This document shows, piece after piece, positions 45,153-63,431 of a DNA stretch of 64,000 nt. The stretch is from NCBI GenBank assembly GCA_046347625.1, contig JAXMFU010000001.1, positions 671,512 through 735,511 of the forward strand, written 5' to 3'. Origin of the DNA: Candidatus Competibacteraceae bacterium. Its GTDB lineage: Bacteria; Pseudomonadota; Gammaproteobacteria; Competibacterales; Competibacteraceae. The position numbers and the translations under genes were made by a program. A model generated the notes under the pieces. That model was not told the origin of the DNA. It saw nothing but the letters and a program-made list of their open reading frames with translations, and did no database searches. Position 1 is the stretch's first letter. Every line of letters starts with the position of its first letter.

Positions 45153-46244
45153 ATGCCAACCCTGACCGTAGATCTTGGCGAACGCAGTTATCCCATCTAT
45201 ATCGGCGCCGGCCTGTTGGCGCGGGCCGATTTATTGCAGCCCCATATTCCCGGCCGCCAAGTGCTGGTGGTCAGCAACGAGACCGTCGCGCCCCTGTATT
45301 TGCAGCAGACGGAAGCGGCACTGGCAGGCTTGCAACACGCCGCCGTGATTCTGCCGGACGGCGAACAGTACAAAACGCTGGAGGTGCTTAACCGGGTTTT
45401 CGACGCCCTGCTGGAACGGCGCTTTGGTCGTAATTGCACCCTGATCGCCCTGGGCGGCGGGGTGATCGGCGATATGGCCGGCTTTGCCGCCGCCTGCTAT
45501 CAGCGCGGAGTCCATTTCATCCAGATTCCCACCACCCTGCTGGCTCAGGTGGATTCTTCGGTGGGCGGCAAGACCGGGGTCAACCATCCGCTGGGGAAGA
45601 ATATGATCGGGGCTTTCTATCAACCCCGCTGTGTCCTGGCCGATACCGATACCTTGAATACCTTGCCCGACCGCGAACTTAGCGCCGGTCTGGCGGAAGT
45701 GATCAAATACGGTCTGATCCGCGATCTGCCCTTTCTGGAATGGCTGGAAGCGCATCTGGAAGCCCTGCTGGAGCGGCAACCGGCGGCGCTTAGCTATGCT
45801 ATCGAACAATCCTGCCGCAATAAAGCCGAGATTGTCGCCGCCGATGAGCGGGAGAGCGGTCTGCGGGCACTGCTCAATCTAGGGCATACCTTCGGTCACG
45901 CCATCGAAACCGGCATGGGCTATGGTCTCTGGCTGCATGGTGAGGCAGTGGCGGCCGGTATGCGGATAGCGGCCGATTTATCGTCCCGGTTGGGTTGGTT
46001 GCAACCGAACGAAGTGGAGCGGGTGATCGGGCTGCTGCGCCGTGCCCGTTTGCCGGTACGATCACCGGCGGAACTGGGTAATGATAAGTTCCTCGAGTTG
46101 ATGGCGGTGGATAAAAAGGTTCAGGATGGTCGCCTGCGCTTGATTCTGCTGCAAAAACTCGGCTACGGCATTATTGCCGAGCAGGTCGATCCAGTTCTGT
46201 TGCGAGCGACCCTGGAGGTCTGCCGTCAGTCGAGCGGCGACTGA
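45153..46244 (+). CDS. aroB: 3-dehydroquinate synthase.
   Basis: Contains [14 protein letters not shown] and HGEAVAAG. 363 aa. Confidence 0.9.
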
Positions 46245-47554: not shown

Positions 47555-48412
47555 ATGAACAATATCAAGCTGTCACTGTTGCGCGGCATCTGCCAGATGC
47601 CGGCCTATGTGGCCTATGAGAAGGGGTTCCTGAAGGATGAAGGATTGGAAGCGACATTGGAAATTGTGGCTACGGCCTGGCTGGTGCCCGAGAAGCTGGC
47701 CAGCGGTGATTGTCAGTTTGCCGTAATGCCGTGGACGCGAGTTGCAGCGGCCGAACTGGAAGGACTGCCGTTGGTATTACTGGCCGGTTCGGGATATGAG
47801 GAGGCGGCGATTGTCCTGCGCAATGGGATTTCCCCGGCGGAGGTCAGTAAGGTGGCCATTCCGCTGCGCGGCGGCATCAAGGACCTGACGGCAATGGGCC
47901 TGATCAAGTCGCTTGGCTGGGAAAACGTCCAGCAGATTCGGCAGCCGTCCGGCGACGGCGCAATCATCGCGTTGTTCGGGCAGGGAGCGGATGCCGCCTC
48001 AATGGTGGAACCGTACGCGACGATGATGGAAGGGTTAGGCGTGGGCAAAGTGATCCGGCGCACGGGCGATTTGTGGAAGGGGGCGCCAGGATGTTCGTTG
48101 GCAACGACAAAACCGTTCAGAGATCGCACGCCCGATGTGGTGGAAGGTGTGGTGCGGGCGTTCGCGCGCGGGGTCCAGTTTGTGAAGGAGAACCCACAGG
48201 AGGCTGCGGAGATGGCGTCCCGTTACATCGGTGTCAACAGCCGGTTCATCTGCGCGGCGTTGAAGAACAACCAGCCCAACGTGGATGCTATCCGTAACTC
48301 TCGAGCGATGGCGGAAATTCTCGGGCTGATGCAGCAACTCGGATACATCCACACGCTCCCGACCGACTACGTGGATTTAAGTTTTCTCGACAAAGTCGGC
48401 GCCATTCAATGA
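47555..48412 (+). CDS. NMT1/THI5-like substrate-binding-fold protein (SsuA/TauA-like) with no obvious signal peptide.
   Basis: GYLKDEGLE ... LASGDCQFAVMPW pattern of the NMT1/ABC substrate-binding-protein fold. Confidence 0.55.
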   Translation: MNNIKLSLLRGICQMPAYVAYEKGFLKDEGLEATLEIVATAWLVPEKLASGDCQFAVMPWTRVAAAELEGLPLVLLAGSGYEEAAIVLRNGISPAEVSKVAIPLRGGIKDLTAMGLIKSLGWENVQQIRQPSGDGAIIALFGQGADAASMVEPYATMMEGLGVGKVIRRTGDLWKGAPGCSLATTKPFRDRTPDVVEGVVRAFARGVQFVKENPQEAAEMASRYIGVNSRFICAALKNNQPNVDAIRNSRAMAEILGLMQQLGYIHTLPTDYVDLSFLDKVGAIQ

Positions 48413-49941
48413 GGCTGGGACGGATCAGGCAACTGGTGCACTTGGCGGGCGGCTTCCGCCGGTTTCTGCAAACGCCGGTCAGCTACGATCAAGCTGTCGG
48501 CGATATTCGCCGGCGGCTGGAAAACCGTGACCGCGATTTCAGCGCACTCGCCCAGCGACTGATCTACGACATTCCGTCCAGCCCATACCGCAAGCTGCTG
48601 TTGTGGGCCGGCTGTGACTGGGCCGATCTGTGCGCGAACGTGAAAACGCACGGTCTGGAGAAGACACTGAAACAGCTTTGGGATGCCGGGGTGTACCTGA
48701 CGTTGGAGGAATTTAAGTCGGGTATTCCCATCAGTCGTCCTGGGTTGAACATCGAGACAGGCGAGAGCGACTTCGATAATCCGTTTCTGGGCAGTCACCG
48801 CCTCGAAGGCGCCACCAGCGGCAGCCGGGGGCGGAGCACGCGGGTAGCTTACGACTGGGAGTTCATCACCGAGGAGAGCGCGCACGAGCTGTTGTTATAC
48901 ACCATGCACGGTGTGCTGAACGCGCCGACCGCACTTTGGTTTCCCGTCCCGCCCGGCATCGCCGGCATCCATAACCTGCTGATGAACCTCAAAATGGGAA
49001 GCGTACCTGAAAAATGGTACTCACACACACCGACCGACGCCATGCTGTTGGAAGCGCGGCTGGCACTCCGGTTCATTCACTGGATGAGCAGTTCACCGCG
49101 CCCCGAATTCGTCGACCTCTCCCAGGTAGACCAGGTTGTTGCCTGGCTCGCCGGCGCCTGCGCGAAGCGCGGCATCGCTGTGGTACGGACGTACGGCAGT
49201 TCGGCCGTTCGCCTCGCTCAAACCGCATTGGCGTCCGGCGTTGACATCAGCGGCAGCATCCTGTTCGCCGGGGGTGAACCACTCACTGAACATCGCCGGT
49301 GCTTTATAGCGTCCACTGGCGCGAAGGTATTCCCGCGTTACATCACCACCGAAAGCGGTCTTGTCGGCGCCGCCTGCCCCCATCACAACGGGACCGACGA
49401 CATGCATTTATACAAGGATCGGCTTGCTGTGATCGAACGGGAGGAACGGTTGTTCTATACATCTTTGACCGCGCACGCCGGCAAGATCATGCTCAATACC
49501 GATTTGGGTGATTGCGGGGAACTCACCACCAAGCCTTGCAATTGCCTGTTCGGTGAGTTGGGATTTGACCAGCATCTGTCAAACGTGCGCAGTAACCAGA
49601 AACTGACGGTGGAAGGGATGACGCTGTTGGCTTCCGAGTTGTACCGCGCCATCAGTGTTGCCGTCGAGACCGCCGGGGGCGGGCCGGATTCGTACCAGAT
49701 CCGGCAGAAGCAGGATGAGAGTGGATTGAGCAAATTGGTGATCACCCTCAGCCCTGATGTCAGCGGCGTGGAGGAGGCGAAGCTGGTTGAAGCCGTACTC
49801 GCTCACCTCCAGCGGGGCCGGCCGGCCAGTGCGCTGGCGGCGGATGTCTGGCGGCAGGCGGCGACATTGCAGATCGTGCGCGAGCGGCCGCAGTTGAGCC
49901 GGGGGCACAAGCTGTTGCCGGCGATCGAGAAAGGAACGTAA
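48409..49941 (+). CDS. PaaK / F390-synthetase / CapK-like adenylate-forming enzyme (ANL superfamily).
   Basis: A P-loop-like ATSGSRGRST and ...YITTESGLVGAACPHHNGTDDMHLYKDRLAVIE. It is a paralog of the ORF at 53025-54566. Confidence 0.6.
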   Translation: MRLGRIRQLVHLAGGFRRFLQTPVSYDQAVGDIRRRLENRDRDFSALAQRLIYDIPSSPYRKLLLWAGCDWADLCANVKTHGLEKTLKQLWDAGVYLTLEEFKSGIPISRPGLNIETGESDFDNPFLGSHRLEGATSGSRGRSTRVAYDWEFITEESAHELLLYTMHGVLNAPTALWFPVPPGIAGIHNLLMNLKMGSVPEKWYSHTPTDAMLLEARLALRFIHWMSSSPRPEFVDLSQVDQVVAWLAGACAKRGIAVVRTYGSSAVRLAQTALASGVDISGSILFAGGEPLTEHRRCFIASTGAKVFPRYITTESGLVGAACPHHNGTDDMHLYKDRLAVIEREERLFYTSLTAHAGKIMLNTDLGDCGELTTKPCNCLFGELGFDQHLSNVRSNQKLTVEGMTLLASELYRAISVAVETAGGGPDSYQIRQKQDESGLSKLVITLSPDVSGVEEAKLVEAVLAHLQRGRPASALAADVWRQAATLQIVRERPQLSRGHKLLPAIEKGT

Positions 49942-50648
49942 TGGCGGTAACGTTTGATCCTGAATCGTGGAACCGTGTGTACGACAATCCGCACGATATC
50001 AAGGATTTCGTATTCCGGCGCGGCGCGGAACTGGCGCGTGACAGCTGTCGGGAACTCATCCGGTCCGGTCACCGCTGGTTGGACCTCGGGTGCGGAACCG
50101 GCCAGTTGATGCAGTGGCTGAGTGAAGCCGGCGCCTGCGTAGTGGGGGTTGATCATGACCTGCGGATGATCGAGTTCACCCGCCGGAAAGCGGGGGGAGA
50201 ACTGCGCGGGGTGGTCGCACAGGGCGAACGACTTCCCTTTGGCGATGCCACGCTGGATGGTGTGGTCGCCACCTCCGTGATGGGCTGCATCCCGGAGGCG
50301 AAGTGCATTTACGCCGAAATGTACCGCGTGTTGCGCCCGCACGGTTGTGCGGTACTGACCTTTACCAATCGGGCCAGTTGGTTGCTGAAACTCAACTACC
50401 TCGCCACCCGGCCCGGCGGCACGAAGTATTACCTTTATGATGCGGCTGGTGTGACCCGGGAATTGGAGGGACTCGGTTTCCAGGTCCTCCAAACGCGATT
50501 CTATAACTTCGTGCTCCGTGCAGGTGGTATGTTATTGCCGCCTCCGTCGCTGGCTCGGCGGCTCGATGGCCTGGGTCGGCACCTGTTCAGCAGACATTGG
50601 GCAAGAAACTTCATCGTCGTGGCGCAGAAACGCTCTGCGGTCAGGTGA
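49941..50648 (+). CDS. Class I SAM-dependent methyltransferase.
   Basis: Contains LDLGCGTGQL and RLPFGDATLDGVV (Methyltransf_11 motifs). Confidence 0.8.
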   Translation: MAVTFDPESWNRVYDNPHDIKDFVFRRGAELARDSCRELIRSGHRWLDLGCGTGQLMQWLSEAGACVVGVDHDLRMIEFTRRKAGGELRGVVAQGERLPFGDATLDGVVATSVMGCIPEAKCIYAEMYRVLRPHGCAVLTFTNRASWLLKLNYLATRPGGTKYYLYDAAGVTRELEGLGFQVLQTRFYNFVLRAGGMLLPPPSLARRLDGLGRHLFSRHWARNFIVVAQKRSAVR

Positions 50649-50796
50649 GTGGGAGCGTGCCTTCCCAGCCGCGCTCCAACAGTGGGCATCGAGCCTGGGA
50701 AGTGGCTTCGACTCGGCAGCGTTCGATTTGCAACATCGGCTTGTTCGCCTGCCGGACCGTATTATGCAAGGTAATGCCGGCGATCCCGCACAGGCG

Positions 50797-53028
50797 TCAA
50801 CCTCCCTTCGGGCGGACTGCCCGGACCGCTACGAAATAACCCGTCAACCAGCGCGTCGGCCAGCGTGCCAGCCGCTCCCACTGCATCAGTCCTTCCAGAA
50901 ATCGCTGCTGCCGCGCCGCGTCGCCACGCCGCTGCACTGCGGCGGCCCGTTTCACGGCCAACACCCGTGGACAGTGCAACAATGCGCCCATTCTTCCGAC
51001 CTCGAACCCGGTTTCATGCAACAGCCGCCGCAGTCGTCTCGGTCCGCAGGTGACACCCACCTGGTACGGCATCAGCCCGAGCCGGTGCAGTAGCGCAAAC
51101 GGCAGCAGGTTGCGGATGGCGACCAATGGATTCGCCGCATTGTCCAGGGTCAACAGCAGTTCTCCACCCGGTCGCAACACCCGCCGCAACTCCCGCAGGC
51201 TGCCGATCAATTCCTCCTCGGTCTGAAAATGATCCAACGTCGAGTTCGATACGATGACGTCGAATACGCCATCGGTGAACGGTAACTGACGGACATCCGC
51301 GCCGATGCCCGTTCGGGCGGCCTGCACGGTGGTCAATGCGATATCGATGCCGACCACGAACCGGGCGCGGGAGACGAGTTCCCCGTATAGACCTCCGCCC
51401 ACCGCTTCGTCGAACAGGTCCGTCTTCAACACCCGTTCCACCGGCCGTTGCGGCCACCATGACGCCAGCCATTGTCGGTTCACCGCGTCGCTGTGCGCGC
51501 GCCAGAGCTTATCGGGTTGCGCCTGTCGCCAGTCAGCACCGACCTTGTCCCAATAAAGGAGATCGTCCGATACCGACGGTTTCGTCCCCGTTACCAGCGA
51601 CCAGGCCAATGCAATCTCGCGCCGACTGAACTCGCCCAGTACCAGATATCCGACCAGTACCAACAGCGAGAGGGCTACCAGCTTCACCACCAGCATTATC
51701 CCGCTCGCCGGCCAGAGCGTCGCCAGCGCAAAGGTACCAGTACACAACAGTACGCTGCGCCCTAAAGAGGCCGCTGGCGGCGCCACGCGCCATAACCGCC
51801 GGACCGCTCCCACGGCCAATGCCGCGCCGCACACCGTCAGGCCGGTCGTCACTACCGCCGCTCCCATGGCGCCAAAGGGTGGAATCAGCAACAGATGCCC
51901 GACCAGTCCCAGTGGTACCAGTGGCCCGGCAATGATGAAGGTCCAGTTTGCCTTTCCTCCCGCCGTCAGGATGCCATTCGTCACCCCCAACAAAACTCCC
52001 GCCACCGCACCGAAAATCAATACCGCCAGCAGCGGTCCGGCCGCGGCGAACTGCACCCCGGCGATCAGCCGCACGATCTCACCGGCCGCCCCGGCGCTCA
52101 ATCCCGCCAACGGCAGCAGCAGTAACACTAACCGCATCGCATCGCGCGCCATGAGGTGGGCGTGTTGTTCCCGGCCATCGCGCAACAGCCGCGTCAGCGT
52201 CGACAGCAGCAGCGGCGAGAGTGACGCCGCAAAAATCCCAAACACCACCGTCAAGTTCTGCGCCATGCCATAGATACCGGCCTGTGCGGCAGTCGCACCG
52301 AGCGCTTTCAACATCAACAAATCCAACTTGTCGAACACGCGCAGCGCCATCGCACACAGAAACAACGGTACTACCGCCTCCCACAACCGCCGTACCGGAA
52401 AATCCGCCGGGCCGAACAGCGCAGGACGGATGAACCGGCGGGCGATGGCCAACTCGATTACCGACGTGCCGATGCTGGCGACAATCGCGCCATTGACGGA
52501 GAACCCTGCCAGCCCGACCAGCGCCAGGACCAACACCAGCCGCACCGTCCAGCGGACGGCACTCAGCCAGGCGCGTTGACGGAATCCGCCGGTGCCGATC
52601 AAGATATTGCGGTGGGCGTGCGCGAGGCTGAAGAGCGGAATATCGATAGCGAACAAGCGCAGATACCCGGCCAGGGTCGGTTCGTCCAACAGGGCGGCAA
52701 TCGGCCCGGCCAGCGCCACCAGCAGCACGGCGCACGCGACGCTGACGCCCAGGTGCAGCCGCACCACCAGCGTGCCCACGGGCCGCCAGTCCGACACTTC
52801 GGCGATACACTTATACGTGGCGCGCGCGAATATCGCCGTGATGGTCCATTCGATCCAGGTGACCAGCGTTATCGCCAGCGTGAACAAGCCGTACCCGTCT
52901 GCACCGAGCCGCCGTGTCAACACTACCGTCGCGATCAGACCGGCTGGCAGGATCAATGCTTCGGCGAGGAACACGCGGACCGTGCCGTCCAGAATACGGT
53001 GGCCTGCGGCTGAAGGTCTAGGCTTCAT
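50797..53028 (-). CDS. Fusion protein: an N-terminal Wzx-like polysaccharide flippase (MOP/PST family, about 480 aa, roughly 12-14 transmembrane helices) joined to a C-terminal class I SAM methyltransferase domain.
   Basis: Long hydrophobic N-terminal portion. The C-terminal VVGIDIALT ... LPFTDGVFDVIVSNSTLDH ... LRPGGELLLT are methyltransferase motifs. Confidence 0.7.
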   Translation of the reverse strand: MKPRPSAAGHRILDGTVRVFLAEALILPAGLIATVVLTRRLGADGYGLFTLAITLVTWIEWTITAIFARATYKCIAEVSDWRPVGTLVVRLHLGVSVACAVLLVALAGPIAALLDEPTLAGYLRLFAIDIPLFSLAHAHRNILIGTGGFRQRAWLSAVRWTVRLVLVLALVGLAGFSVNGAIVASIGTSVIELAIARRFIRPALFGPADFPVRRLWEAVVPLFLCAMALRVFDKLDLLMLKALGATAAQAGIYGMAQNLTVVFGIFAASLSPLLLSTLTRLLRDGREQHAHLMARDAMRLVLLLLPLAGLSAGAAGEIVRLIAGVQFAAAGPLLAVLIFGAVAGVLLGVTNGILTAGGKANWTFIIAGPLVPLGLVGHLLLIPPFGAMGAAVVTTGLTVCGAALAVGAVRRLWRVAPPAASLGRSVLLCTGTFALATLWPASGIMLVVKLVALSLLVLVGYLVLGEFSRREIALAWSLVTGTKPSVSDDLLYWDKVGADWRQAQPDKLWRAHSDAVNRQWLASWWPQRPVERVLKTDLFDEAVGGGLYGELVSRARFVVGIDIALTTVQAARTGIGADVRQLPFTDGVFDVIVSNSTLDHFQTEEELIGSLRELRRVLRPGGELLLTLDNAANPLVAIRNLLPFALLHRLGLMPYQVGVTCGPRRLRRLLHETGFEVGRMGALLHCPRVLAVKRAAAVQRRGDAARQQRFLEGLMQWERLARWPTRWLTGYFVAVRAVRPKGG

Positions 53029-54566
53029 CCTGGCGCCGGGATGATTGGAAGATGTTTGCCGCGCTTGGTCAGTTGCGGTTCGGCGCGAATGACTTCGAGC
53101 AACCCGCTCTGTTTCCAGATCTGTGCCGAGAACTTGCCAGAGCCGTGTGCACGGCTAAGCGTGTCGAGCACGGCGCGGATAAACTGCGCTTCGTCCAGGT
53201 TTTCGAGACGGGGATGAATCGCCACCTTGAGGCGGGTCAGTTCACCTTGACCGTCGGTTTCCCAGAACTGGTAATCGTCAGGGCTGCCCCCCAGTTGCTC
53301 GATGAGCGCACCGATGATCTCGTCGAGATCGGTGGCGAGGATCGCCATCCCTTCACCGGTCAGCTTGTCCCGGCTACGAACGTTGACGACGTGGGTTTCC
53401 ATGCCCAAATCACCAAACGCGCAACTGCACCGGCGCGTCACCAGCGCACCGGTATCGCCGATGTCGGTGTTGAAAAGAACCTTACCGGTGTGTGGCGACA
53501 ATGATGTGAACAGGAAGCTTTCCGCCCGCTGAATCACCGCCAAGCGGTCGACGTAGATGTGCATGTCGTCGGCGCCGGTCCGGTACGGGCAAGCCGCGCC
53601 GATCAAGCCGGCCTCCGTTGCCGAGTAGCGTGGAAATACCCGCGCGCCGGTCGCTTCGATGAAGCGGCACCGGCGTTCGGTCAATGGTTCTCCAGCGCTT
53701 AAGATCACGCTGCCGCTAATGTCGAGCCCACGTTCATGCGCAGCTTGGGCCAGGCGCACGGCGGAACTGACATAGGTTCTGAGCAGCGGTGGTCCGACTT
53801 TTCTTTTTGTCGTCGCAATCCATTCAGCAACCCGACCGGCGTGGCTGAAATCCGCAAATTCGGGCCGGGGAAGCGGCTGCCCCAGCAGCCGGCAGCAGCC
53901 AAGCAGGTACTCCATTGCCAGCCGGTGCCTTGACAGCAAACCGCCAGCCTTCCAGTCGGTCTGCGAAAACCATTGCAGCGGCACGCGCCGAAACCGGACA
54001 TTCATCATCGCGCTGCTAACGCCGGCAATCGCCGGCAGCGTCGGTAACCACAACACCAGCGGTGCCGTGCGGACGCCGTGCAGTTCATTGAGAATCAATT
54101 CGTTGGCCGCCTGCTCGTGGAACAACGCCCAGTCATATACCACCCGCGAACCGTGCGAGCGGCTACCACTGGTTGTCGCTTCGAGACCGGTGGCCGTGAA
54201 AAATGGGTTATCGAAATTATCCTCACGCGGTTGCAGCCACAGCCCGGAACGCTGGATGGGCGTGCGCGCCTTGAATTCGGCCAACGACACGTATACGCCG
54301 GCATCGCGCAACTGCGCCAGCGTTGGCTCCAGCCCGTGTCGGCGGACGTTTTGTGCCAAATCACCGTACTCGCACCCGGCCCACGCCAACAAGGCGCGAT
54401 ACGGACTCGAGGGGTTGCCGTAGATATGCGTCTGCGCCAGGCGTAGAAACCGGCCGGCTCGGTCGGCCAGCCGCAGTTTAAGCGCCGCGACGGCTTCGGC
54501 ATAATTCAGCGGCCGGCGGATGAAGGCCGGCAATCCCCATGCCAGGCGCGCCAGTTGCCCAATCAC
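53025..54566 (-). CDS. Second PaaK/CapK-like adenylate-forming enzyme. The start was re-set to a GTG that overlaps the upstream stop (GTGA).
   Basis: Aligns along its whole length with the 48409-49941 protein (SSPYR.LL.WAGC, ATSGSRS.GSRV.YDW, FPRY..TE.GL.GAACP). The 589-aa ORF as listed would overlap the ALDH gene by 230 nt. Confidence 0.6.
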   Translation of the reverse strand: MIGQLARLAWGLPAFIRRPLNYAEAVAALKLRLADRAGRFLRLAQTHIYGNPSSPYRALLAWAGCEYGDLAQNVRRHGLEPTLAQLRDAGVYVSLAEFKARTPIQRSGLWLQPREDNFDNPFFTATGLEATTSGSRSHGSRVVYDWALFHEQAANELILNELHGVRTAPLVLWLPTLPAIAGVSSAMMNVRFRRVPLQWFSQTDWKAGGLLSRHRLAMEYLLGCCRLLGQPLPRPEFADFSHAGRVAEWIATTKRKVGPPLLRTYVSSAVRLAQAAHERGLDISGSVILSAGEPLTERRCRFIEATGARVFPRYSATEAGLIGAACPYRTGADDMHIYVDRLAVIQRAESFLFTSLSPHTGKVLFNTDIGDTGALVTRRCSCAFGDLGMETHVVNVRSRDKLTGEGMAILATDLDEIIGALIEQLGGSPDDYQFWETDGQGELTRLKVAIHPRLENLDEAQFIRAVLDTLSRAHGSGKFSAQIWKQSGLLEVIRAEPQLTKRGKHLPIIPAPG

Positions 54567-56374
54567 TGGTAAATCGCCTGAATGCGGGTGTACACCGCGC
54601 GATTGCTGCGGCCATGTTCGGGAGGGCCGATGCCGGACGCTTTCCAGCCACCGAACGGCGCTTCCGCATCCGCATCGGCGGTGGCGCGATCGAGCTTCAG
54701 GATACCGGCCTGGGCCGTTTCGAGAAATCGCGCCTGCCGCTCCGCCGACCGGCTGAACAGTGCCGCCACCAGACCGTGGCGCACCCCGTTGCACAAGCGC
54801 AAGGCGTCCTCGAAGTCGCGCGCCGGTTGCACGACCAGCACGGGGCCAAACGTTTCTTCCTGTACGATCTCGGCGGCCGGATTGTCACATTGAATGACCG
54901 TCGGCGGAAAATACCCCGGCATCGGGTCCGCCGGGCCTTGCAAGAGCAGTCCACCGGTACGCGCCACCAAGGCGGCCACTTGATCGCGTTTGGCCGTCGA
55001 GATCAATGTGCCGACATCGGTCCGCGGATCCAGCGTGGCCACCGCCCGGTGCAGATGTTCGAGAAACGCATCCCGGCAGGCCGTGTCGAGGATTACCCGC
55101 CGGTTCGCCGTGCAGCGCTGCCCGGCAAAACCGAACGCCGCTTCGGCCACCGCCGTGGCGGCGGCCGCCAAGTCCGTATCCGACCAGACGATGGCGGCGT
55201 TATTGCCGCCCAGTTCGGCCTGCAACGGTACGCGGCGTTGCGCACAGATCACCTGTGCCGTCCAACCGGCCGCCTCCGAGCCGGTCAAGACCACGGCGTC
55301 GACGGCAGGGTCGGCCATCAACCGTTCGGCAACCGTAGCGTCGCCGTTCACCAGGTTCACCACGTCCGGCGGTATACCGGCTGTTTCGAGCAAAGCCATC
55401 AGCCGGACGGCAATACCCGCCGCGGCTGGAGCCGGTTTCCAGACCACCGTGTTGCCATAGAGCAGCGCCGGTGCGAGCCGGCCGACGGGGATGGCGACCG
55501 GGTTATTCCACGGCGTGATGACGGCGATCACCCCGCGCGGACACCGGCGCTCGCGGGAGTGCTCGCCGCACGGTGCTTCCCACGGCTCGCGCGCATACCG
55601 AATCGCGGCGTCGATGAGTGCCACGCTGCGTTCGAGTTCGGCATTACCGTACCGGAGCGGTTTATGAATCTCCGCCACCATCTGTCTGGCTAAGGCCGGC
55701 GACTCCGCCTCGATCAGCGCCGCCAGCCGGATGAGCATCTCGGCGCGATCGTTCAGCGACAGCTTGCACCAGGCGTACCCGGCATGTCGTGCCTTGGCTG
55801 TAGCGCATGCCACGTCCACCCGTTCATCGGCAATGGCGCCGCCGGGTAATCGATCCGCCGGGACAAACTGGACCGCGCGGGCTTCCAGGTACCGGTGCGT
55901 CACGGCGGCATGCAACGGGTCTTCACTGCCGACGGCATCGGCGACAATCCAGACTGTCCACCCACGTTGATAGGCGTCGAGCGCGGTGGCGCGTATGCAG
56001 CTTTGAAGTTGCACGCCCGCCAGCCAGAGGGTGTCGATTCCGCCAGCGCGCAGCACCGTGTCCAATGAGCCATCGACGAACGCACTGAAGCCGGTTTTGT
56101 GCAGCACGGTTTCGGACGGCCAGGGCGGCAACGGCGAGGCATGTCCGGCCGTGCCGTCGACACATATCCATTTACCGTCGCGTTGCCAGTGCGGCATCCG
56201 GTCGTCCGGCTCACGGTGTACCGTGGTCCGGACATGAATGACCGGGATGGCCGCCGCGCGGCAGCGCTCGAGCAGTTTTGCCACCCGGGCGATCAATTCA
56301 CCCGTCGTCGGTTGGAGTGCGGGTGAGTCCAGGTAATCCTGCTGCAGATCGACGAGCACCAGCGCTGGTTTCAT
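54563..56374 (-). CDS. Fusion of an N-terminal isochorismatase-like cysteine hydrolase domain with a C-terminal aldehyde dehydrogenase domain.
   Basis: N-terminal ALVLVDLQQDY and ...CIRATALDAYQRGW. C-terminal ELGGNNAAIV and the catalytic FAGQRCTANRR. Confidence 0.75.
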   Translation of the reverse strand: MKPALVLVDLQQDYLDSPALQPTTGELIARVAKLLERCRAAAIPVIHVRTTVHREPDDRMPHWQRDGKWICVDGTAGHASPLPPWPSETVLHKTGFSAFVDGSLDTVLRAGGIDTLWLAGVQLQSCIRATALDAYQRGWTVWIVADAVGSEDPLHAAVTHRYLEARAVQFVPADRLPGGAIADERVDVACATAKARHAGYAWCKLSLNDRAEMLIRLAALIEAESPALARQMVAEIHKPLRYGNAELERSVALIDAAIRYAREPWEAPCGEHSRERRCPRGVIAVITPWNNPVAIPVGRLAPALLYGNTVVWKPAPAAAGIAVRLMALLETAGIPPDVVNLVNGDATVAERLMADPAVDAVVLTGSEAAGWTAQVICAQRRVPLQAELGGNNAAIVWSDTDLAAAATAVAEAAFGFAGQRCTANRRVILDTACRDAFLEHLHRAVATLDPRTDVGTLISTAKRDQVAALVARTGGLLLQGPADPMPGYFPPTVIQCDNPAAEIVQEETFGPVLVVQPARDFEDALRLCNGVRHGLVAALFSRSAERQARFLETAQAGILKLDRATADADAEAPFGGWKASGIGPPEHGRSNRAVYTRIQAIYQ

Positions 56375-57516
56375 GCAGGGTTCGATTCCCGGTAAAGCGC
56401 GAACACGATGTCCGCGACCAACTCACCCATTTCACGGGTTCCGACCAGGCGTCCACCCAACTCCATCAAATCAGCCGTCCGCCAGCCTTGACGCCAGACT
56501 TGGTGCACGGCCCGTTCGATCGCATCGGCGGCATCGCTGAGACCGAAGCTTTCACGCAGCAACATCGCCACGGAAAGGATCTGGCCGGCCGGGTTTGCCA
56601 CATTCTTGCCGGCCAGGTCGTAGGCGGCGCCATGGTTGGTTTGATACGCCGCCGCGGCGCCGGGGGCAAAGTTGCCGGAGTAGGCCAATGCCCGCGACCC
56701 GAGTAATACCGCGCTTAGGTCGGCCAGCACATCGCCGAAAAGATTCGGCGCCACGATGACATCGAAGTCCCGGGCATGCTGAATCACACAATACGCGGCA
56801 TAATCGACGTTCAGCAACTGTAACTCGATACCCGCCGCGGCGGTAATTTCCAGCGCGCAGTCACGCCATAATTCGCTGATGGTCGGGATGCCGGCGTCTT
56901 TGTAGATGACCGTTAACCGGCCCCGGCGCCGACGGGCGATGCCGGCGGCGGCTTCGAGGATACGCCGCACGTCGGTTTCGGCGTAGGAAAAGTTGTGATT
57001 GGCCACGCGCGTTCCATCGGCTCGAGTGGTTTCGCTCCATTGGCCTTGGTAAATCCCACCGGCATTGTCGCGGATGATGATCAAATCCACGTTATCGCAG
57101 TATTCCGGTTTGAGCCGCGCCGTCAGGCGCAGTGCCGGGTCGGTTCGGACCGGGACAATTTTACAAAACAGATCGAACCGCCGGCGGAGGTCGTAGACGA
57201 AGCGGCCGCCGCCGGCGCCGTGCAACAGGGCGCCCCCATCGGCAAACACGTGACGGCAAAAATTCTCCACTTCAGCCGTCAGAGCGGCACCATGGGCCTG
57301 CTCGGCGGCGGTACCGATCAAGCCGCCGCGGCGAATAATAAAGCTGTATGGGCTGATGGTCTCCAGCGCCTGCAACACGGTGAGACCGGCACCGACGACT
57401 TCCGAGCCGACGCCTTCGCCGTCGAGCACGCCCACCAGATAGTGGCCATTGGAAGGCGACGGTTGGCGCTGACGACCGGGGATACAATCACTCCAGGTTT
57501 TGGCTTCAGGGTACAT
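56371..57516 (-). CDS. Isocitrate/isopropylmalate-dehydrogenase-family beta-decarboxylating dehydrogenase.
   Basis: NLFGDVLADLSAVLLGS is the signature of the IDH/IMDH family. Confidence 0.7.
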   Translation of the reverse strand: MYPEAKTWSDCIPGRQRQPSPSNGHYLVGVLDGEGVGSEVVGAGLTVLQALETISPYSFIIRRGGLIGTAAEQAHGAALTAEVENFCRHVFADGGALLHGAGGGRFVYDLRRRFDLFCKIVPVRTDPALRLTARLKPEYCDNVDLIIIRDNAGGIYQGQWSETTRADGTRVANHNFSYAETDVRRILEAAAGIARRRRGRLTVIYKDAGIPTISELWRDCALEITAAAGIELQLLNVDYAAYCVIQHARDFDVIVAPNLFGDVLADLSAVLLGSRALAYSGNFAPGAAAAYQTNHGAAYDLAGKNVANPAGQILSVAMLLRESFGLSDAADAIERAVHQVWRQGWRTADLMELGGRLVGTREMGELVADIVFALYRESNPA

Positions 57517-57562
57517 GCTGGCTTGTAGGTAATGTTATCTGGATGGCGTTATCTGGATGGCG

Positions 57563-59125
57563 CTATGCCTGGTGCGGATAGACGCCGGTCCATTGGGCCA
57601 ACTTCACTTCAAGGGGAAACTGGTGGAAACGTTTTTTCACCCGCAGGTAGGCAAGCGGATAATAAATCGAGGCAAGCAGACGAACGAGCCAATGAGTTTT
57701 CTTGTACGGCGTGACGAAGTTATTACGGATGGCCAGCGCCGAGGTGAAATGCAACATCCGAATGAGACTTTTCTGGTCGGCCGATAACCAGGGCGCGTAA
57801 CGATTGACGGTGCTGAAGTTGAAACTCACCCATTCTTCCAGCGCGGCGGGGACTTTCAATCCGTGCTGCACGGCGAGATCGAAATCGGCCATACCAGGGA
57901 ACGGGGTGAAGACGTTAAGGCGGGGGACCGCCGCCGGGTTGTCGGCGGCGAGTTGGAGGAAGAGATCGACGGTCTGGGCCAGTTCCTCCTGGGTCTCGGT
58001 GGGAATGCCCATCATGAAGAAATAATGCGGTCGGATATCGAAGCGGGCGAGGCGCCGATTGAAGCGTACGATGGCCGGGATGTCCTGCGGTTTGTTCAAT
58101 AACCCCAGGATGCGCGGGGACGCGGATTCGATCCCGATCATTAACCGCGTACAGCCGCCGTCGCGCAGGATTTGCAGTTCGGCGTCGGACAAGGCAGTCA
58201 GCACGGCGCTGTGGCCGTCGACTTTGGCACAATCGATGCCGAGGTTGAGTTCCTTGAGTTGCCGGAAAATGGCGAGAGCGCGTTCTTTCTTCCCGAAGAA
58301 GTTGTCGTCGGTGAAGATAAAATGCCGAATGCCGTACTCGTTGACGATGCGCTGGAGCCGCCGCACGGTCTCTTCGACGGAGAGCGCGCGCCAGGTGCTA
58401 TGGTAGGCGGCGGTGTTGTAACAGTACTGACAGTGGAACGGGCAACCCCGACTGGTTTCCAGGCTCAGGTGCGGTATGCCGGAAATCAACGGCATATAGT
58501 TGCGGATATCCACCAGATGATAGGCCGGAAACGGTTGTACGTTCAGGTCGATCAATGGCCTCGGCCCGGTCGAACGTGGAGTTCCGTCCGGTTTGTACCA
58601 GACTCCGCGTACCCCGCCCAGCGGCGCGCCGGTCTCCAGGGCCTGCACCAGTTCGAAGAATGTTTCCTCGCCTTCACCTTGTACCACAAGGTCGATGTGC
58701 TCATGGCGCAGCGTCTGTTCCGGCATCAAGGTGGGATGGATACCGCCCCAGACTACCGGTACGGAACTGTGTTGTTTCACCAGGCGGGAGGCTTCCAGCG
58801 CCGAGCGAATCTGCGGTCCGGTCATGGAGGTGACGCCAACACAAACCGGCTCGCGGCGCAGCTCCTCCAGGAGCAACTCGCGCCAGCGGCTTTCCAGCCG
58901 CTGATCGATAATGCGCACGTCGTAACCCGCCCGGTCCAACGGAGTTCCAATCGCCAGCAGACCTTGCGGCAACTCGACACGCGGCTGGACCGCACCGCCA
59001 AATCGATGGGCCGGCTGGAATAATACGATTCGTCGTGAAGTACGTTGATTCATGGTCGTCGGATTCATCGCCAATGCAGCGGTATCGCCCAGGCACGTGT
59101 GGAGCTGGTATACATAGTCACCCAC
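57563..59125 (-). CDS. B12-binding radical SAM protein. The true start is probably the internal Met near 59068.
   Basis: An N-terminal B12-binding region, then the CPFHCQYC radical-SAM cysteine triad. Confidence 0.8.
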   Translation of the reverse strand: MGDYVYQLHTCLGDTAALAMNPTTMNQRTSRRIVLFQPAHRFGGAVQPRVELPQGLLAIGTPLDRAGYDVRIIDQRLESRWRELLLEELRREPVCVGVTSMTGPQIRSALEASRLVKQHSSVPVVWGGIHPTLMPEQTLRHEHIDLVVQGEGEETFFELVQALETGAPLGGVRGVWYKPDGTPRSTGPRPLIDLNVQPFPAYHLVDIRNYMPLISGIPHLSLETSRGCPFHCQYCYNTAAYHSTWRALSVEETVRRLQRIVNEYGIRHFIFTDDNFFGKKERALAIFRQLKELNLGIDCAKVDGHSAVLTALSDAELQILRDGGCTRLMIGIESASPRILGLLNKPQDIPAIVRFNRRLARFDIRPHYFFMMGIPTETQEELAQTVDLFLQLAADNPAAVPRLNVFTPFPGMADFDLAVQHGLKVPAALEEWVSFNFSTVNRYAPWLSADQKSLIRMLHFTSALAIRNNFVTPYKKTHWLVRLLASIYYPLAYLRVKKRFHQFPLEVKLAQWTGVYPHQA

Positions 59126-59271: not shown

Positions 59272-60507
59272 TTACCTGCGGTGAGCGGCTGAAGTCGCCC
59301 TGATTTTCTCGATTAGCGTGAGGTAATGTTGCAGATGGACTTCCGCCGTCCATTTCGCCTGATAAGCCCGGTATGCAGCGTAACCCAGATCATCCCGGAG
59401 CGCCTTGTTCTCCAGCAATCGCTCCATCGCAGTCAGCAGTTCCGACTCGTTCGTATAGCTGAAACCACCGCCGCTCTCTGCGATCAGCTCCGGCATCGCC
59501 CCTAAATTTCTGACAATCACCGGCGTTCCTTGTTGAAAGGCTTCCAGAATTACCAGCGGGCAAACTTCGAACCATAGGGAGGGCACGATCAGTGCCATCG
59601 CCTGCTGATAGCAGGCTTGCAACCGGCCGGCCGATAGATGACCCAGAAAGCGGATGTTAGTGCTGCCGTCGGCCAACCGCCGTAAGAAGGGTTCGTAATC
59701 ACCGGTACCGGCAATCAGCAGGCGCGCCCGCGAATAATTCCGGAAAAGAGGAATAAGCGTTTGCACTCCTTTGATTTTTTCCAAACGCCCTACATAGAGA
59801 AAATAGGGCACTTCCATGCTATCCCCCACCCATTCCGTTCCTGGTACTGCCGGTTCTTCGGAAATGAAATTGGGCAGATGTACGCCTGGCAGCTCGAGTC
59901 CTCTTTGCCGCAGAGTCTGTGCGCTGAAAAGGCTGGGTGCAATCAGGGTATCCACATGCGCCAGCATTCTCTCTAAAAGTCTGCCATAGCGCCACCATTG
60001 CGGCGGGCGCTTATGGACCAGTGTGCAGGGCAGACAAGTGGGATGCGCGCAGACCGCTCGGTTGAATTTGAACAGCACATGGGCAGGGCAGACCAGCCAG
60101 TAATCATGCGTTGTCAGGAGCTTGATACCCTGGCCATAGGCCAGTATCCCTGGACCACCGACTAAAGAAATGTTGTGATAATGGATGACGTCGAAACCTT
60201 TTTGCAGGATCGACTGGATACGGGCCCGCTTGAAAAAGGGGAGTCCGGTCTGTTGCGTGGCCAGAGGAGACAGTGGACCGAAGCGGCTCCTGAGTCCATG
60301 GATTGTTACATTGGGGTGGTCGTCATAGGTACCTGCCGGCTCCCGTCCCGCCAGCAGTAAATAGGAATCGATACAGTGGATTACCTCCACCTGATGCCCG
60401 CGCCGCGCCAGTTCGTTGCTCAGGCGGCGCACGAAAATCCCGTCTCCACCGAAGTTATAGGGAGGATAGAAGGTAGTAATCATGCAGAAGCGCAGTGACG
60501 TTCTCAT
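59272..60507 (-). CDS. Family 4 glycosyltransferase.
   Basis: The N-terminus MITTFYPPYNFGG and the C-terminal EVCPLVILEAFQQGTPVI form the GT4 fold. Confidence 0.8.
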   Translation of the reverse strand: MRTSLRFCMITTFYPPYNFGGDGIFVRRLSNELARRGHQVEVIHCIDSYLLLAGREPAGTYDDHPNVTIHGLRSRFGPLSPLATQQTGLPFFKRARIQSILQKGFDVIHYHNISLVGGPGILAYGQGIKLLTTHDYWLVCPAHVLFKFNRAVCAHPTCLPCTLVHKRPPQWWRYGRLLERMLAHVDTLIAPSLFSAQTLRQRGLELPGVHLPNFISEEPAVPGTEWVGDSMEVPYFLYVGRLEKIKGVQTLIPLFRNYSRARLLIAGTGDYEPFLRRLADGSTNIRFLGHLSAGRLQACYQQAMALIVPSLWFEVCPLVILEAFQQGTPVIVRNLGAMPELIAESGGGFSYTNESELLTAMERLLENKALRDDLGYAAYRAYQAKWTAEVHLQHYLTLIEKIRATSAAHRR

Positions 60508-61115: not shown

Positions 61116-62012
61116 ATGGATATGATCCTGAATTTTGCGCCGACCGGCATGATTCCAACCAAACAGATGACGCCTTATGCAGCTGTCGGCATTCAGGAAA
61201 TTATCGAAGATGTGCATGCCGCCTATGAACTGGGCATCACCCTCGTCCACCTCCATGCCCGGGACGAGGTGACCGAAGAGCCAACGTATAGGGCCGACGT
61301 GTACGCGAAGCTCATCGAGGGTATCCGCGAATTTTCCAAGGATCTCATCGTCTGCGTTTCCCTCAGTGGGCGCACCTTTCAGGAATTCGAAAAACGAGCC
61401 GCGCCGCTTCAACTTGATGGCGATCTCAAGCCGGACATGGGAAGCCTGACGCTCAGTTCGGTCAATTTTCCCCAGGTAGCCAGTGTGAATTCCCCGCAAA
61501 TGATTCAAGCCCTGGCCACCGAGATGCAACGACGCGGCATTCTGGCGGAATTGGAGGTCTTCGACGTGGGCATGATCAATTATGCAAAGTATCTGGAAAG
61601 CAAGGGCTTATTGCAACCGCCGCATTATTTCAATCTGCTGCTGGGCAGTATCGCCGGTGCCCAGGCCGATCTACTGCCTGCCGGCCTCATGATTCGCGAT
61701 CTACCACCGGGTTCCCTGTGGAGTTTTGCCGGCATCGGTGACGATCAACTGACAATGAACGCACTGGCCGTCGCCGCCAGCGGCGGCGTGCGCGTCGGCC
61801 TCGAGGACAATATCTGGTATGACCGCGGCCGCACTCGGCTGGCGCGCAATATCGACCTGGTGCGTCGTATCCACCAGTTGGCGGAGGTCTTGGAACGACG
61901 GATCATGCCACCCCAGGAACTCAGGCGATGCTTGCAACTCGAGGCAGGCAACGGTCGTTATGGCCGCCGCAGCGCCATGGCAGCGAATGCGAAGGCGCCG
62001 GCGATCGCTTGA
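61116..62012 (+). CDS. BKACE-family (DUF849) beta-keto-acid cleavage enzyme; 3-keto-5-aminohexanoate-cleavage-enzyme-like.
   Basis: N-terminus MILNFAPTGMIPTK, TIM-barrel length, and a GLEDN motif. Confidence 0.75.
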   Translation: MDMILNFAPTGMIPTKQMTPYAAVGIQEIIEDVHAAYELGITLVHLHARDEVTEEPTYRADVYAKLIEGIREFSKDLIVCVSLSGRTFQEFEKRAAPLQLDGDLKPDMGSLTLSSVNFPQVASVNSPQMIQALATEMQRRGILAELEVFDVGMINYAKYLESKGLLQPPHYFNLLLGSIAGAQADLLPAGLMIRDLPPGSLWSFAGIGDDQLTMNALAVAASGGVRVGLEDNIWYDRGRTRLARNIDLVRRIHQLAEVLERRIMPPQELRRCLQLEAGNGRYGRRSAMAANAKAPAIA

Positions 62013-62066
62013 CATCCGCTGGATCGCCCCGGTCATCAATCAACCGGACCGATCCAATTACTGTCC

Positions 62067-63431
62067 CTAGCGATTCTCCGCCACCAATCGGCGCAATAAA
62101 CTGTTATAAGCCTGCCCCATTCGATCCGGTGAGAATTCGTTCCGGACCAGCCGTTGGGCGTTCTGCGCAAGTTGTGTTTGCAAGGAGACGTCGGTCAACA
62201 GAGTCACAACGGCTGACGCTAGAGACCGGCGATCGCCCGGTCGATAACACAGACAGGTTTTGTGATCCTGTACCAGTCTGGCGTCGGGATGTGCCGCAGA
62301 GGCAACAACCGGCAGGCCGGCGGCGAAAGCTTCCATGAGAACCAGCGCTACCGGGTCGGTGAAAGGCGAGTAGAAGAACAATAGATCGTGCTCGGCGTAA
62401 GCGGTTTGGAGTGCCGCCCGCTCTACCGGCGGACGCAAGGTTACGATATCGTTCAGGCCGTTACGCCGGATAGTCGCAAGGATGTTGTCGCGATAACCCG
62501 CCGGGCCTTGGGCAGCGATCACCGTCAAAGTGAGTTCTCCGACCGCCTGACGAATCGTGGGAAGCGCATCCAACAGTAAGTGGAGCCCTTTTTCCCGCGA
62601 CAGCCGTCCGACCCATAACAGGCGATTGCGCCCGCTGGCAAGACGGGGCAATGGTTTGGGCAAAGGGACGCTAAAGTAGATAATGTGCGCTCTTTCCTTG
62701 GCTAAGCCGGCCTGGATGGCTTCTTCATACCACTGCCGATTGGCAAACACGGCCAGCTTGATAGCGTGCGGCGAGACCCGCTGCAAGAGAAAAGGATGGA
62801 ACGAGCGGCGCAGACGTCGCCGCACCAGCACCTGCAACCCTGACCACCACCAGGCCCGGAGTTCCATGGCTAAGGCATTGAGACCGATGAGCATCACCCG
62901 TGGATGTCGCCGGGTAGCCAGCGCCATGAGGCCCGGCGCATCGATGGTCGTGGTGCTTAGCAGAACGGCATCATGGCGTTTGCTGTCGGCCAGCAGCTGT
63001 TCCATGCGGTAGAGGTTATCCGAAGCATGCTTCCAGAACGAACCCGGCATAAACAGAGTTTCGACAAGATAGCGAATCTGCACAGGCAACCTTTGCCCCA
63101 GCCACGCAGCCCATGTCCAGCGGCTCAGTACCGCCAGCTTGTTGGAAAAATTGGTTGGCTGCAACGCCAAGACTGAATCCGGTTTTTCTCCCACCGTGGC
63201 AGTCGAGTATACGGGGACATCGACTTCCCATCCCCGGCTCCTCAGTTGGGCGGCCAGATCATCCAGCGCGATCGTCAAGCCTCCTTTTTCTCCCGGGGAA
63301 AGCGCTTGCCCGATGAGCAAGGCTCGCAACGGTCTTCTTGCCGAGACAGCCGGATCGAGACCGGTCATCGTGCCGGTTCCGTTATCCCTGTCAGGGCTAT
63401 CGATGATCGGAGGCGTAGCAGGGCTGGTCAT
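62067..63431 (-). CDS. Family 4 glycosyltransferase, 454 aa.
   Basis: C-terminal LMEAFAAGLPVVASA ... motif of the GT4 fold. Confidence 0.75.
   Translation of the reverse strand: MTSPATPPIIDSPDRDNGTGTMTGLDPAVSARRPLRALLIGQALSPGEKGGLTIALDDLAAQLRSRGWEVDVPVYSTATVGEKPDSVLALQPTNFSNKLAVLSRWTWAAWLGQRLPVQIRYLVETLFMPGSFWKHASDNLYRMEQLLADSKRHDAVLLSTTTIDAPGLMALATRRHPRVMLIGLNALAMELRAWWWSGLQVLVRRRLRRSFHPFLLQRVSPHAIKLAVFANRQWYEEAIQAGLAKERAHIIYFSVPLPKPLPRLASGRNRLLWVGRLSREKGLHLLLDALPTIRQAVGELTLTVIAAQGPAGYRDNILATIRRNGLNDIVTLRPPVERAALQTAYAEHDLLFFYSPFTDPVALVLMEAFAAGLPVVASAAHPDARLVQDHKTCLCYRPGDRRSLASAVVTLLTDVSLQTQLAQNAQRLVRNEFSPDRMGQAYNSLLRRLVAENR

Follow-up and report, generated by a model that had tools for sequence, protein, structure and literature searches.

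The 64,000-nucleotide stretch of DNA analysed here (referred to as the window) comes from a Candidatus Competibacteraceae bacterium and corresponds to positions 671,512 to 735,511 of the forward strand of contig JAXMFU010000001.1. On its minus strand the window carries a gene encoding an isochorismatase-family hydrolase fused to an aldehyde dehydrogenase (ALDH). This fusion gene is located directly downstream of a gene for an enzyme that resembles 3-isopropylmalate dehydrogenase (IPMDH), here named Iso_dh*, and directly upstream of a gene for a putative PaaK-like ligase. Based on the present data, we identified Iso_dh* and the fusion as an undescribed module of three activities that is widespread and is marked by a diagnostic active-site change in the IPMDH-like enzyme. 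The main features are as follows, in coordinates of the window:

54563-56374, minus strand: amidase-ALDH fusion gene, a single open reading frame (ORF) with an ATG start and 603 amino acids (aa), carrying Pfam domains PF00857 and PF00171
55877-56365, minus strand: isochorismatase-family domain, aa 4-166 (Pfam PF00857)
56348-56350, 56096-56098 and 55997-55999, minus strand: codons of the predicted hydrolase triad D9, K93 and C126, respectively, placed by alignment to solved members
54575-55822, minus strand: ALDH domain, aa 185-600 (Pfam PF00171)
55505-55507, 55214-55216 and 55112-55114, minus strand: codons of the invariant ALDH residues N290, E387 (in ELGGNN) and C421 (in GQRCTANRR), respectively
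56371-57516, minus strand: Iso_dh* gene, encoding an IPMDH-like beta-decarboxylating dehydrogenase of 381 aa (Pfam Iso_dh, 9e-68)
53025-54566, minus strand: putative PaaK-like adenylate-forming ligase, copy 1 (family F5), 513 aa, found by family profile search

The original prediction, made from the DNA letters of the window, was that an isochorismatase-like hydrolase is fused to an ALDH, and this is borne out by one uninterrupted ORF in which a short linker joins an N-terminal Isochorismatase domain (E-value 1.2e-33, 117 bits versus a Pfam cutoff of 27) to a C-terminal Aldedh domain (6.5e-103, 345 bits versus a cutoff of 23). The fusion is not an assembly artefact, because a 100% identical protein is on record in an NCBI Candidatus Competibacteraceae metagenome-assembled genome (MAG; 1.6 Mb contig) and in an independent Logan assembly, both Pfam domains are present on all of the best 120 database relatives, and each of the 80 GTDB loci that were retained aligns with the query over its full length (residues ~1-602). 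An AlphaFold2 model built on the alignment (mean predicted local distance difference test (pLDDT) value of 86.8; predicted template-modelling score of 0.80) consists of two folded domains, with a disordered, low-confidence linker at residues 179-185 and a low-confidence stretch at residues 569-588. Among solved structures the two-domain architecture was not found, as the PDB matches obtained with Foldseek cover the ALDH part only (~440 columns). Full-text literature searches for isochorismatase, ALDH, IPMDH, NRPS-like (non-ribosomal peptide synthetase-like) and PaaK-like fusions did not yield a characterised member, and in public databases the relatives are labelled only 'aldehyde dehydrogenase family protein' or carry a double name in COG style. 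It should be added that long antisense shadow ORFs arise in this region from the high G+C content, one example being an ORF of 384 aa at 54539-55693 on the plus strand.

To read residue conservation we used an alignment of 26 fusion homologues with 51-87% identity, in which D9, K93 and C126 of the N-terminal domain are invariant. In HMMER alignments to the solved proteins 3hu5, 3eef and 1ilw these three residues fall on the catalytic Asp, Lys and Cys of the Cys-hydrolase triad. The nucleophile Cys126 sits in LAGVQLQSCIRAT, and in the AlphaFold2 model the domain has pLDDT values of ~85-96. The hydrolase Cys and the GQRCTA and ELGGN motifs to which the original prediction had drawn attention could thus be located as Cys126, aa 418-423 (with Cys421) and aa 387-391 (with Glu387), and its statement that both catalytic signatures are intact agrees with the invariance of D9/K93/C126 and N290/E387/C421. 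The closest solved relative of the domain is the uncharacterised Desulfovibrio protein 3hu5 (4e-21), next to 3eef, which is related to N-carbamoylsarcosine amidase (CSHase; 3e-19), and the Pyrococcus PncA protein 1ilw (1e-14). The RutB structure 8bkd is also among the PDB matches, and the true isochorismatases PhzD, EntB and VibB appear at only ~1e-7. The closest NCBIfam models, namely YecD-like hydrolase, BiuH, RutB (1e-10) and PncA (41 bits versus a cutoff of 174), all score far under their cutoffs.

The Cys-type enzymes nearest in sequence to the N-terminal domain (YecD-like, BiuH, RutB, CSHase-related and PncA) act on terminal carboxamide or ureido groups, from which ammonia or carbamate is set free, and among their reactions only the RutB type gives an aldehyde, indirectly. 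True isochorismatases such as EntB and PhzD are vinyl-ether hydrolases without a nucleophilic Cys. An assignment as true isochorismatase was rejected on the grounds that Cys126 is invariant and that PhzD, EntB and VibB are so distant. Asp52, His54 and His71 of 1ilw, the metal ligands of nicotinamidase, align to His53, Glu55 and Ile70, and these positions are variable in the family; since the ligands are not kept and the PncA model stays below its cutoff, an assignment as nicotinamidase was rejected as well. With the metal ligands variable, and with true isochorismatases both distant and devoid of the Cys, the N-terminal domain is best read as a predicted generic Asp-Lys-Cys amidohydrolase of the amidase type within the isochorismatase superfamily. 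In fold family and aligned triad it is like the known Cys amidohydrolases (N-carbamoylsarcosine amidase, RutB, BiuH, NicF, PncA and YecD), and it also has a C-[VI]-R-x-T motif after the nucleophile. However, it reaches no curated family cutoff, it carries an invariant segment of its own (M-P-H-W...C-x-x-G-T-x-G-H), and its clade is found essentially only fused to ALDH. When 1.84 billion representatives were scanned by HMMER with this domain alone, 139 clusters (50% identity) were obtained at E<=1e-30, nearly all of them being fusions of 600-690 aa or truncated fusions.

The C-terminal domain contains the motifs ELGGNN (residues 387-392) and GQRCTANRR (residues 418-426), and its catalytic and cofactor residues N290, K313, E387, C421 and E507, as well as G365/G370, are invariant among the 26 homologues. 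Foldseek gave template-modelling scores of 0.75-0.87 between this part of the fusion and solved ALDHs, and the full catalytic set predicts an NAD(P)+-dependent ALDH. Identity to solved ALDHs amounts to ~27-33% and is roughly equal across many subfamilies. The best NCBIfam models are GucD (alpha-ketoglutarate semialdehyde dehydrogenase; 265 bits versus a cutoff of 770), SSADH, AstD (226-236 bits versus cutoffs of 514-579; 8e-70), HpaE and P5CDH, which are mostly dicarboxylate semialdehyde dehydrogenases, and a match to PuuC was obtained at 1.5e-53. No ALDH equivalog among the NCBIfam models (GucD, SSADH, AstD, PuuC and others) reaches its cutoff. Because the similarity is spread over many subfamilies and no equivalog cutoff is reached, the specific substrate is not readable from the sequence. 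Compared to the semialdehyde dehydrogenases represented by these models, the full ALDH fold, the Asn/Glu/Cys residues and the cofactor motifs are kept. The differences from the usual ALDH motifs are PWNNP in place of PWNFP and GPPEHG in place of the G-R-E segment, and the N-terminus of the ALDH domain is shorter in the 603-aa fusion than in homologues of ~670 aa. The catalytic loop GQRCT-x-x-RR is common to the domain and to 5u0l, the top PDB chain. The latter is named N-succinylglutamate 5-semialdehyde dehydrogenase (AstD) in an entry that is titled fatty aldehyde dehydrogenase from Marinobacter, and for this reason we did not take the molecule names of ALDHs as substrate assignments. An AstD-specific reading of the domain was rejected in view of this title and of the equal or better scores of GucD, SSADH and HpaE.

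The stop codon of Iso_dh* overlaps the start codon of the fusion in the sequence ATGA. In fold and length Iso_dh* matches the 3-isopropylmalate, homoisocitrate and tartrate dehydrogenases, its best PDB match being the IPMDH 3u1h (8e-58), and it retains the Asp residues that bind Mg, the Tyr and Lys of catalysis, and two of the three Arg residues that contact the substrate. The remaining Arg, that of the 'NLRP' motif, corresponds to Arg104 of Thermus IPMDH and Arg129 of Escherichia coli isocitrate dehydrogenase (ICDH), and is a ligand of the alpha-carboxylate. It is kept in IPMDH, ICDH, homoisocitrate dehydrogenase and tartrate dehydrogenase, but in the window its position is occupied by Val (residues 116-122, LFCKIVP). 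All 51 aligned cassette-linked homologues of Iso_dh* have Ser or Val in this column, and a Lys two residues upstream of it is invariant in the same 51 sequences. The replacement of this Arg by Ser or Val suggests that the substrate of Iso_dh* is probably not a canonical 3-substituted malate. An assignment as LeuB was rejected, since Iso_dh* scores 216 bits with the leuB model TIGR00169 (cutoff 353) and the equivalent of Arg104 is replaced. Among the recurrent neighbours of Iso_dh*, no IPMS-like (2-isopropylmalate synthase-like) and no aconitase-like or isomerase genes were found.

To define the distribution of the fusion and its gene neighbourhood, GTDB was scanned by pattern with one genome per species, which gave relatives in 339 of 185,579 species. 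The best 80 of these matches, all of which are MAGs, were examined in detail, and the neighbourhood counts given below refer to 82 non-redundant loci (individual loci are designated L with a number). The ORFs around the fusion genes were predicted by a simple script and then clustered; antisense shadow ORFs were miscalled in high-GC loci, and the counts were taken from tblastn. The best 80 belong to the Acidobacteriota, Verrucomicrobiota, Planctomycetota, Actinomycetota (Solirubrobacterales, Thermoleophilia), Myxococcota, Gemmatimonadota, Cyanobacteriota, Abditibacteriota, Alpha- and Gammaproteobacteria, and Rhodothermia. Database relatives add the Nitrospirota and Latescibacterota, so that the family spans at least 12 phyla, and the hosts are soil, peat, freshwater and wastewater bacteria, most of them uncultured. 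The architecture had initially been described as uncommon; this holds per genome, as the fraction of species shows, but not for the family as a whole, which is large both in phyla and in its 139 clusters of N-terminal domains. The original prediction had also named a widespread and already characterised architecture as the finding that would speak against it. The architecture is indeed widespread, but as no characterised member was found, this objection applies only in half. One Verrucomicrobiia contig (JBAPQW010000022.1) has two inverted copies of the module with the same gene order (L068, 10451-32385; L069, 115104-137038), which may stem from a large inverted duplication or else from an error of assembly.

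Iso_dh* was found in 76 of the 82 loci, and four of the six apparent absences are due to contig ends. In 73 loci it is located directly upstream of the fusion on the same strand, the commonest junction being the 4-bp ATGA overlap, which is present in 39 loci in addition to the window. Furthermore, protein P0209 is an Iso_dh-Isochorismatase-Aldedh triple fusion of 1049 aa, which is encoded identically on contigs of two unrelated metagenome samples (L087, 4477-7626; L088, 2626-5775). Its neighbours are an ATP-grasp enzyme, an A-T (adenylation-thiolation) protein, a Rieske oxygenase and a Methyltransf_3 O-methyltransferase. Such triple fusions are rare, and no in-frame example was found among the GTDB loci. 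P0209 constitutes Rosetta-stone evidence that all three activities serve one pathway. Iso_dh* and the fusion thus form a conserved three-activity module, and the tie between the fusion and a neighbouring isopropylmalate dehydrogenase (IMDH)-like enzyme, which had been proposed from the window, holds across the family by virtue of gene order, ATGA overlaps and the triple fusion.

The commonest further neighbour of the module is an NRPS-like protein of ~906 aa with adenylation (A), thiolation and thioesterase domains (A-T-TE; Pfam AMP-binding, PP-binding and Thioesterase). The A-T-TE gene was detected by tblastn in 55 loci and by clustering only in three more (L050, L065, L082), and in 38 loci it lies on the same strand within 3 kb downstream. 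Between the fusion and the A-T-TE gene there is often a gene for a probable iron/2-oxoglutarate-dependent oxygenase (PhyH-like, 17 loci), a Rieske/LigXa_C oxygenase (12 loci) or a HemN-like radical SAM (S-adenosylmethionine) enzyme (4 loci). The PhyH-like family was assigned weakly (Pfam 0.011, PDB 0.09), its H-x-D...H...R pattern being conserved. In eight loci (tblastn) and in the window, the place of A-T-TE is taken by the PaaK-like ligase, and an adenylating enzyme of either family is thereby present in ~66 of the 82 loci. The loci with a PaaK-like ligase often include an orthologous family 4 glycosyltransferase (GT4; family F7; L005, L014, L073), in some cases a PhyH-like gene (L046, L073, L083) and in one case a flippase (L024). 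Ten further neighbours from loci of this class were inspected with Pfam and showed nothing recurrent; they included an amidase-signature protein, transporters and DNA-repair genes.

The A domains of A-T-TE hold information on the acid that is activated. HMMER alignment places Gly222 of the A-T-TE protein of L020 on the Asp of the LgrA FD-motif (the Asp235 equivalent) and Arg290 on position 299. Over 53 A-T-TE sequences, position 235 is G, A, L or S and never D, and position 299 is Arg or Lys in 45. In the NRPS specificity code, the lack of Asp235 together with a basic residue 299 denotes an acid without an alpha-amino group and with a second anionic group. On the basis of these residues, the acid activated by A-T-TE is expected to lack an alpha-amino group and to carry a further anionic group.

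The GTG start codon of ligase copy 1 in the window overlaps the TGA stop codon of the fusion as GTGA, and the protein was therefore set at 513 aa instead of the 589 aa of the mechanically called ORF. It has no Pfam match. With a profile of nine family members, matches were obtained to the phenylacetate-CoA ligase 9s3l (2.4e-8), the PaaK-like 6siw and AjiA1, which extend over only ~110-125 residues, next to weak NCBIfam matches to BagE/FevW and PaaK. The family comprises ~168 clusters at 90% identity that are all annotated as 'hypothetical protein', and is covered by no Pfam or NCBIfam model. The product of 53025-54566 is thus predicted to be a distant PaaK-like adenylate-forming ligase.

In the window, the module and the ligase are part of a minus-strand operon with the order GT4, B12-binding radical SAM enzyme, Iso_dh*, fusion, PaaK-like ligase, and flippase-methyltransferase, the last four genes being joined by overlapping start and stop codons. 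The operon thereby stands in a locus for the biosynthesis of a glycan or glycoconjugate, which contains the following further features:

59272-60507, minus strand: GT4 glycosyltransferase, first gene of the operon (Pfam Glycos_transf_1, Glyco_transf_4)
57563-59125, minus strand: B12-binding radical SAM enzyme of up to 520 aa (Pfam B12-binding and Radical_SAM)
50797-53028, minus strand: Wzx-like flippase fused to a SAM methyltransferase, 743 aa (Pfam Polysacc_synt, Polysacc_synt_3, Methyltransf_11)
46349-47329, minus strand: family 2 glycosyltransferase (GT2) at the edge of the locus (Pfam Glycos_transf_2)
61116-62012, plus strand: beta-keto-acid cleavage enzyme of the BKACE family (Pfam BKACE, 9e-76; NCBIfam Kce-like under cutoff)
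62067-63431, minus strand: second GT4 (Pfam Glyco_trans_1_4)

The start codon of the flippase-methyltransferase gene overlaps the stop codon of the ligase gene as ATGA, and the methyltransferase domain is located at the C-terminus of the flippase. A homologue of the flippase adjoins the module in an Acidobacteriota MAG (L024, 11820-13754). The B12-binding radical SAM enzyme has BchE and HpnJ as its best NCBIfam matches, far under their cutoffs, and a Bryobacterales MAG encodes a homologue at a distance of ~8 kb from the module (L027, 19537-21258). The combination of GT4, ligase and module recurs in L005, L014 and L073. BKACE and the second GT4 (61116-63431) are likely to form the other edge of the locus. 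In the Thermodesulfovibrionia locus L005, a BKACE remnant of 41 aa (5670-5795) is found just upstream of the orthologous GT4, which hints at an older association of BKACE with the locus. AroB (45153-46244) was considered as a link to cyclitols or chorismate and rejected: it passes the cutoff of the housekeeping aroB equivalog and was not counted in the locus. The G+C content is 0.61-0.66 over positions 50000-58000 versus ~0.50-0.60 over most of the window, and this rise across the operon is compatible with horizontal acquisition of the module.

The window contains a second copy of the ligase in a sub-module on the plus strand:

47555-48412, plus strand: NMT1-like protein (Pfam)
48409-49941, plus strand: PaaK-like ligase, copy 2, 48% identical to copy 1
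49941-50648, plus strand: methyltransferase (Pfam)

Ligase copy 2 is translationally coupled to the NMT1/THI5-like protein upstream and to the methyltransferase downstream. The same trio recurs in L091 (8144-12264), the pair of NMT1-like protein and ligase recurs in L090 (8136-10596) as well as in other phyla, and more distant relatives of the ligase adjoin a TAXI-type TRAP transporter (NMT1_3 plus DctM; L092, 3672-8388; L093, 9001-13566). This NMT1-like/ligase sub-module looks like a separate conserved module.

Taken together, these data lead us to the tentative reading, to which we assign slightly less than even probability, that the module makes a small polar di- or poly-acid that is activated by a ligase and, in the window, attached to an exported glycan. 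By family precedent, the hydrolase would cleave a C-N bond and set ammonia free, turning a terminal amide or ureido group into a carboxylate or an amine. The ALDH would convert a semialdehyde into a carboxylate, and Iso_dh* would catalyse the oxidation or oxidative decarboxylation of a hydroxy-acid. The expected product is a polyanionic acid, small and polar, that lacks a free amino group in the alpha position, most likely a 2-oxo- or 2-hydroxy-dicarboxylate, which the adjoining adenylate-forming enzyme would activate, this being the stand-alone A-T-TE in most genomes and the PaaK-like ligase in the window. Since the latter is located inside an operon with GT4, the B12-binding radical SAM enzyme and the flippase-methyltransferase, the acid here probably decorates a sugar or glycan: GT4 and GT2 would make the latter, the acid would be joined to it as an acyl group, and the product, possibly methylated, would be exported by the flippase. 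The order of the steps is left free. The hydrolase and the ALDH may act on opposite ends of one molecule with no intermediate passed between them, and two independent carboxylate-forming steps, or oxidation first, are at least as plausible as hydrolysis first. The idea of a stepwise oxidative tailoring of a small acid, which had been put forward from the window, fits with the near-constant presence of an adjoining adenylate-forming enzyme.

The proposed arrangement is reminiscent, by analogy, of the EntB/EntA/EntE and RfbK-O types of acid supply, in which a hydrolase or dehydrogenases provide the acid for an adenylating enzyme, and a carrier or an amino sugar is acylated. The general logic is alike, with an isochorismatase-fold enzyme and one or more dehydrogenases beside an A domain without Asp235 and, in the window, with the acid-activating ligase inside a glycan locus. 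In contrast to these routes, the Cys nucleophile is kept here, the partners are an ALDH and Iso_dh* instead of a short-chain dehydrogenase/reductase, and the window has neither an isochorismate synthase nor a separate carrier protein. A still wider proposal would be that Iso_dh*, the fusion and the adenylating enzyme constitute an undescribed, horizontally mobile pathway, spread over at least 12 phyla, for a new polyanionic oxo- or hydroxy-acid that A-T-TE uses for a small molecule and the PaaK-like ligase for an exported glycan; in this full form we regard it as possible but rather improbable.

Several observations weigh against a module that supplies an activated acid to a glycan. None of the three catalytic domains reaches the cutoff of an NCBIfam equivalog, and no characterised homologue is known. 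The ALDH is about equally similar, at ~30%, to many subfamilies, and its top chain 5u0l is titled a fatty aldehyde dehydrogenase. The argument from the A domain covers the majority context with A-T-TE and not the PaaK-like ligase of the window, and the proposed attachment to a glycan is drawn solely from the neighbouring genes. With no IPMS-like or aconitase-like neighbour, the source of the hydroxy-acid for Iso_dh* is not explained. Neither adenylating partner is present in the three loci L003, L010 and L034, each of which has 6 kb or more of sequence on either side. Finally, synteny denotes functional association and not the direction of flux, so that the module could also act after the ligase or on carrier-bound intermediates.

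Two other readings retain the amidase and the ALDH as consecutive enzymes but fix their order in opposite ways. In the original prediction an aldehyde released by hydrolysis is channelled straight to oxidation, which would require that an enamide or ureido-vinyl compound is cleaved in a RutB-like manner, that the resulting enamine yields an aldehyde by tautomerisation and hydrolysis, and that the fused ALDH converts this into an acid. The presence of RutB among the nearest NCBIfam families of the N-terminal domain and among its PDB matches (8bkd) is in line with this, as is the near-exclusive occurrence of the domain's clade in fusion with ALDH. The RutB product moreover decays to malonic semialdehyde, in view of whose toxicity a fused ALDH would make sense, and the hydrolase precedes the ALDH in both the fusion and the triple fusion. 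However, the order of domains does not fix the order of reactions, most relatives of the domain (YecD-like, BiuH, CSHase-related and PncA) release no aldehyde, and a ring-opening oxygenase of the RutA type is not recurrent among the neighbours. Channelling is not the reading we favour, and we consider it possible but unlikely. By analogy with AstD/AstE of arginine succinyltransferase catabolism and PuuC/PuuD of putrescine catabolism, the ALDH might conversely act first, on an amino-aldehyde that an N-acyl or N-carbamoyl group blocks from cyclising, and the amidase might then remove this group. The matches of the ALDH to the AstD and PuuC models and the loop it has in common with the AstD-annotated 5u0l would agree with this, and CSHase-type relatives such as 3eef strip N-carbamoyl groups from amino acids. 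Against it stand the lack of specificity of the AstD similarity, given that GucD, SSADH and HpaE are as good or better, and the fact that the hydrolases AstE and PuuD come from families other than that of the N-terminal domain. The A domains without Asp235 also fit poorly with an alpha-amino acid as product, although an omega-amine would be compatible. To this order of events, too, we give a low probability.

The remaining alternatives concern the type of pathway. If Iso_dh* and the fusion were a catabolic or detoxification cassette that degrades an amide compound to central metabolites, the ligase and glycan genes would be incidental or regulatory neighbours. Catabolism or central metabolism is the classical setting of all three domain families, the neighbours other than the adenylating enzymes differ widely by lineage, and the three well-flanked loci without an adenylating neighbour would find a natural place here. 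Against this view stand the adenylating enzymes of two unrelated families in ~66 of the 82 loci, in many phyla and usually on the same strand within 3 kb, and the translational coupling of the genes within the glycan operon of the window. Nor is a transporter or catabolic regulator consistently found among the neighbours, and we regard a catabolic role as quite improbable. Still much less probable is a genuine isochorismatase of the EntB/PhzD kind that feeds an aryl acid, or a nicotinamidase that feeds NAD salvage. Apart from the Pfam family name and the matches to PhzD/EntB/VibB and PncA, such a role could draw on the fact that EntB-type enzymes work beside A domains without Asp235. It is disfavoured by the invariant Cys126, which is missing in true isochorismatases, and by the variable residues His53, Glu55 and Ile70 at the positions of the nicotinamidase metal ligands, and neither an isochorismate synthase nor a dihydrodiol dehydrogenase is recurrent among the neighbours.

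If the reading of Iso_dh* and the fusion as an acid-supplying module is true, hundreds of uncultured bacteria carry a compact three-gene cassette that is without a characterised member. This cassette, composed of Iso_dh*, the fusion, and either the ligase or A-T-TE, is a well-delimited target for genome mining, expression and metabolomics. No principle would be overturned by it, since the enzyme domains are ordinary and it is common for enzymes that are consecutive or cooperate in a pathway to be fused. Once the active-site change in Iso_dh* is explained, a new class of substrates of beta-decarboxylating dehydrogenases should come to light. For Competibacter, a glycogen-accumulating organism of wastewater, the module may explain an acyl decoration of the extracellular polysaccharide.

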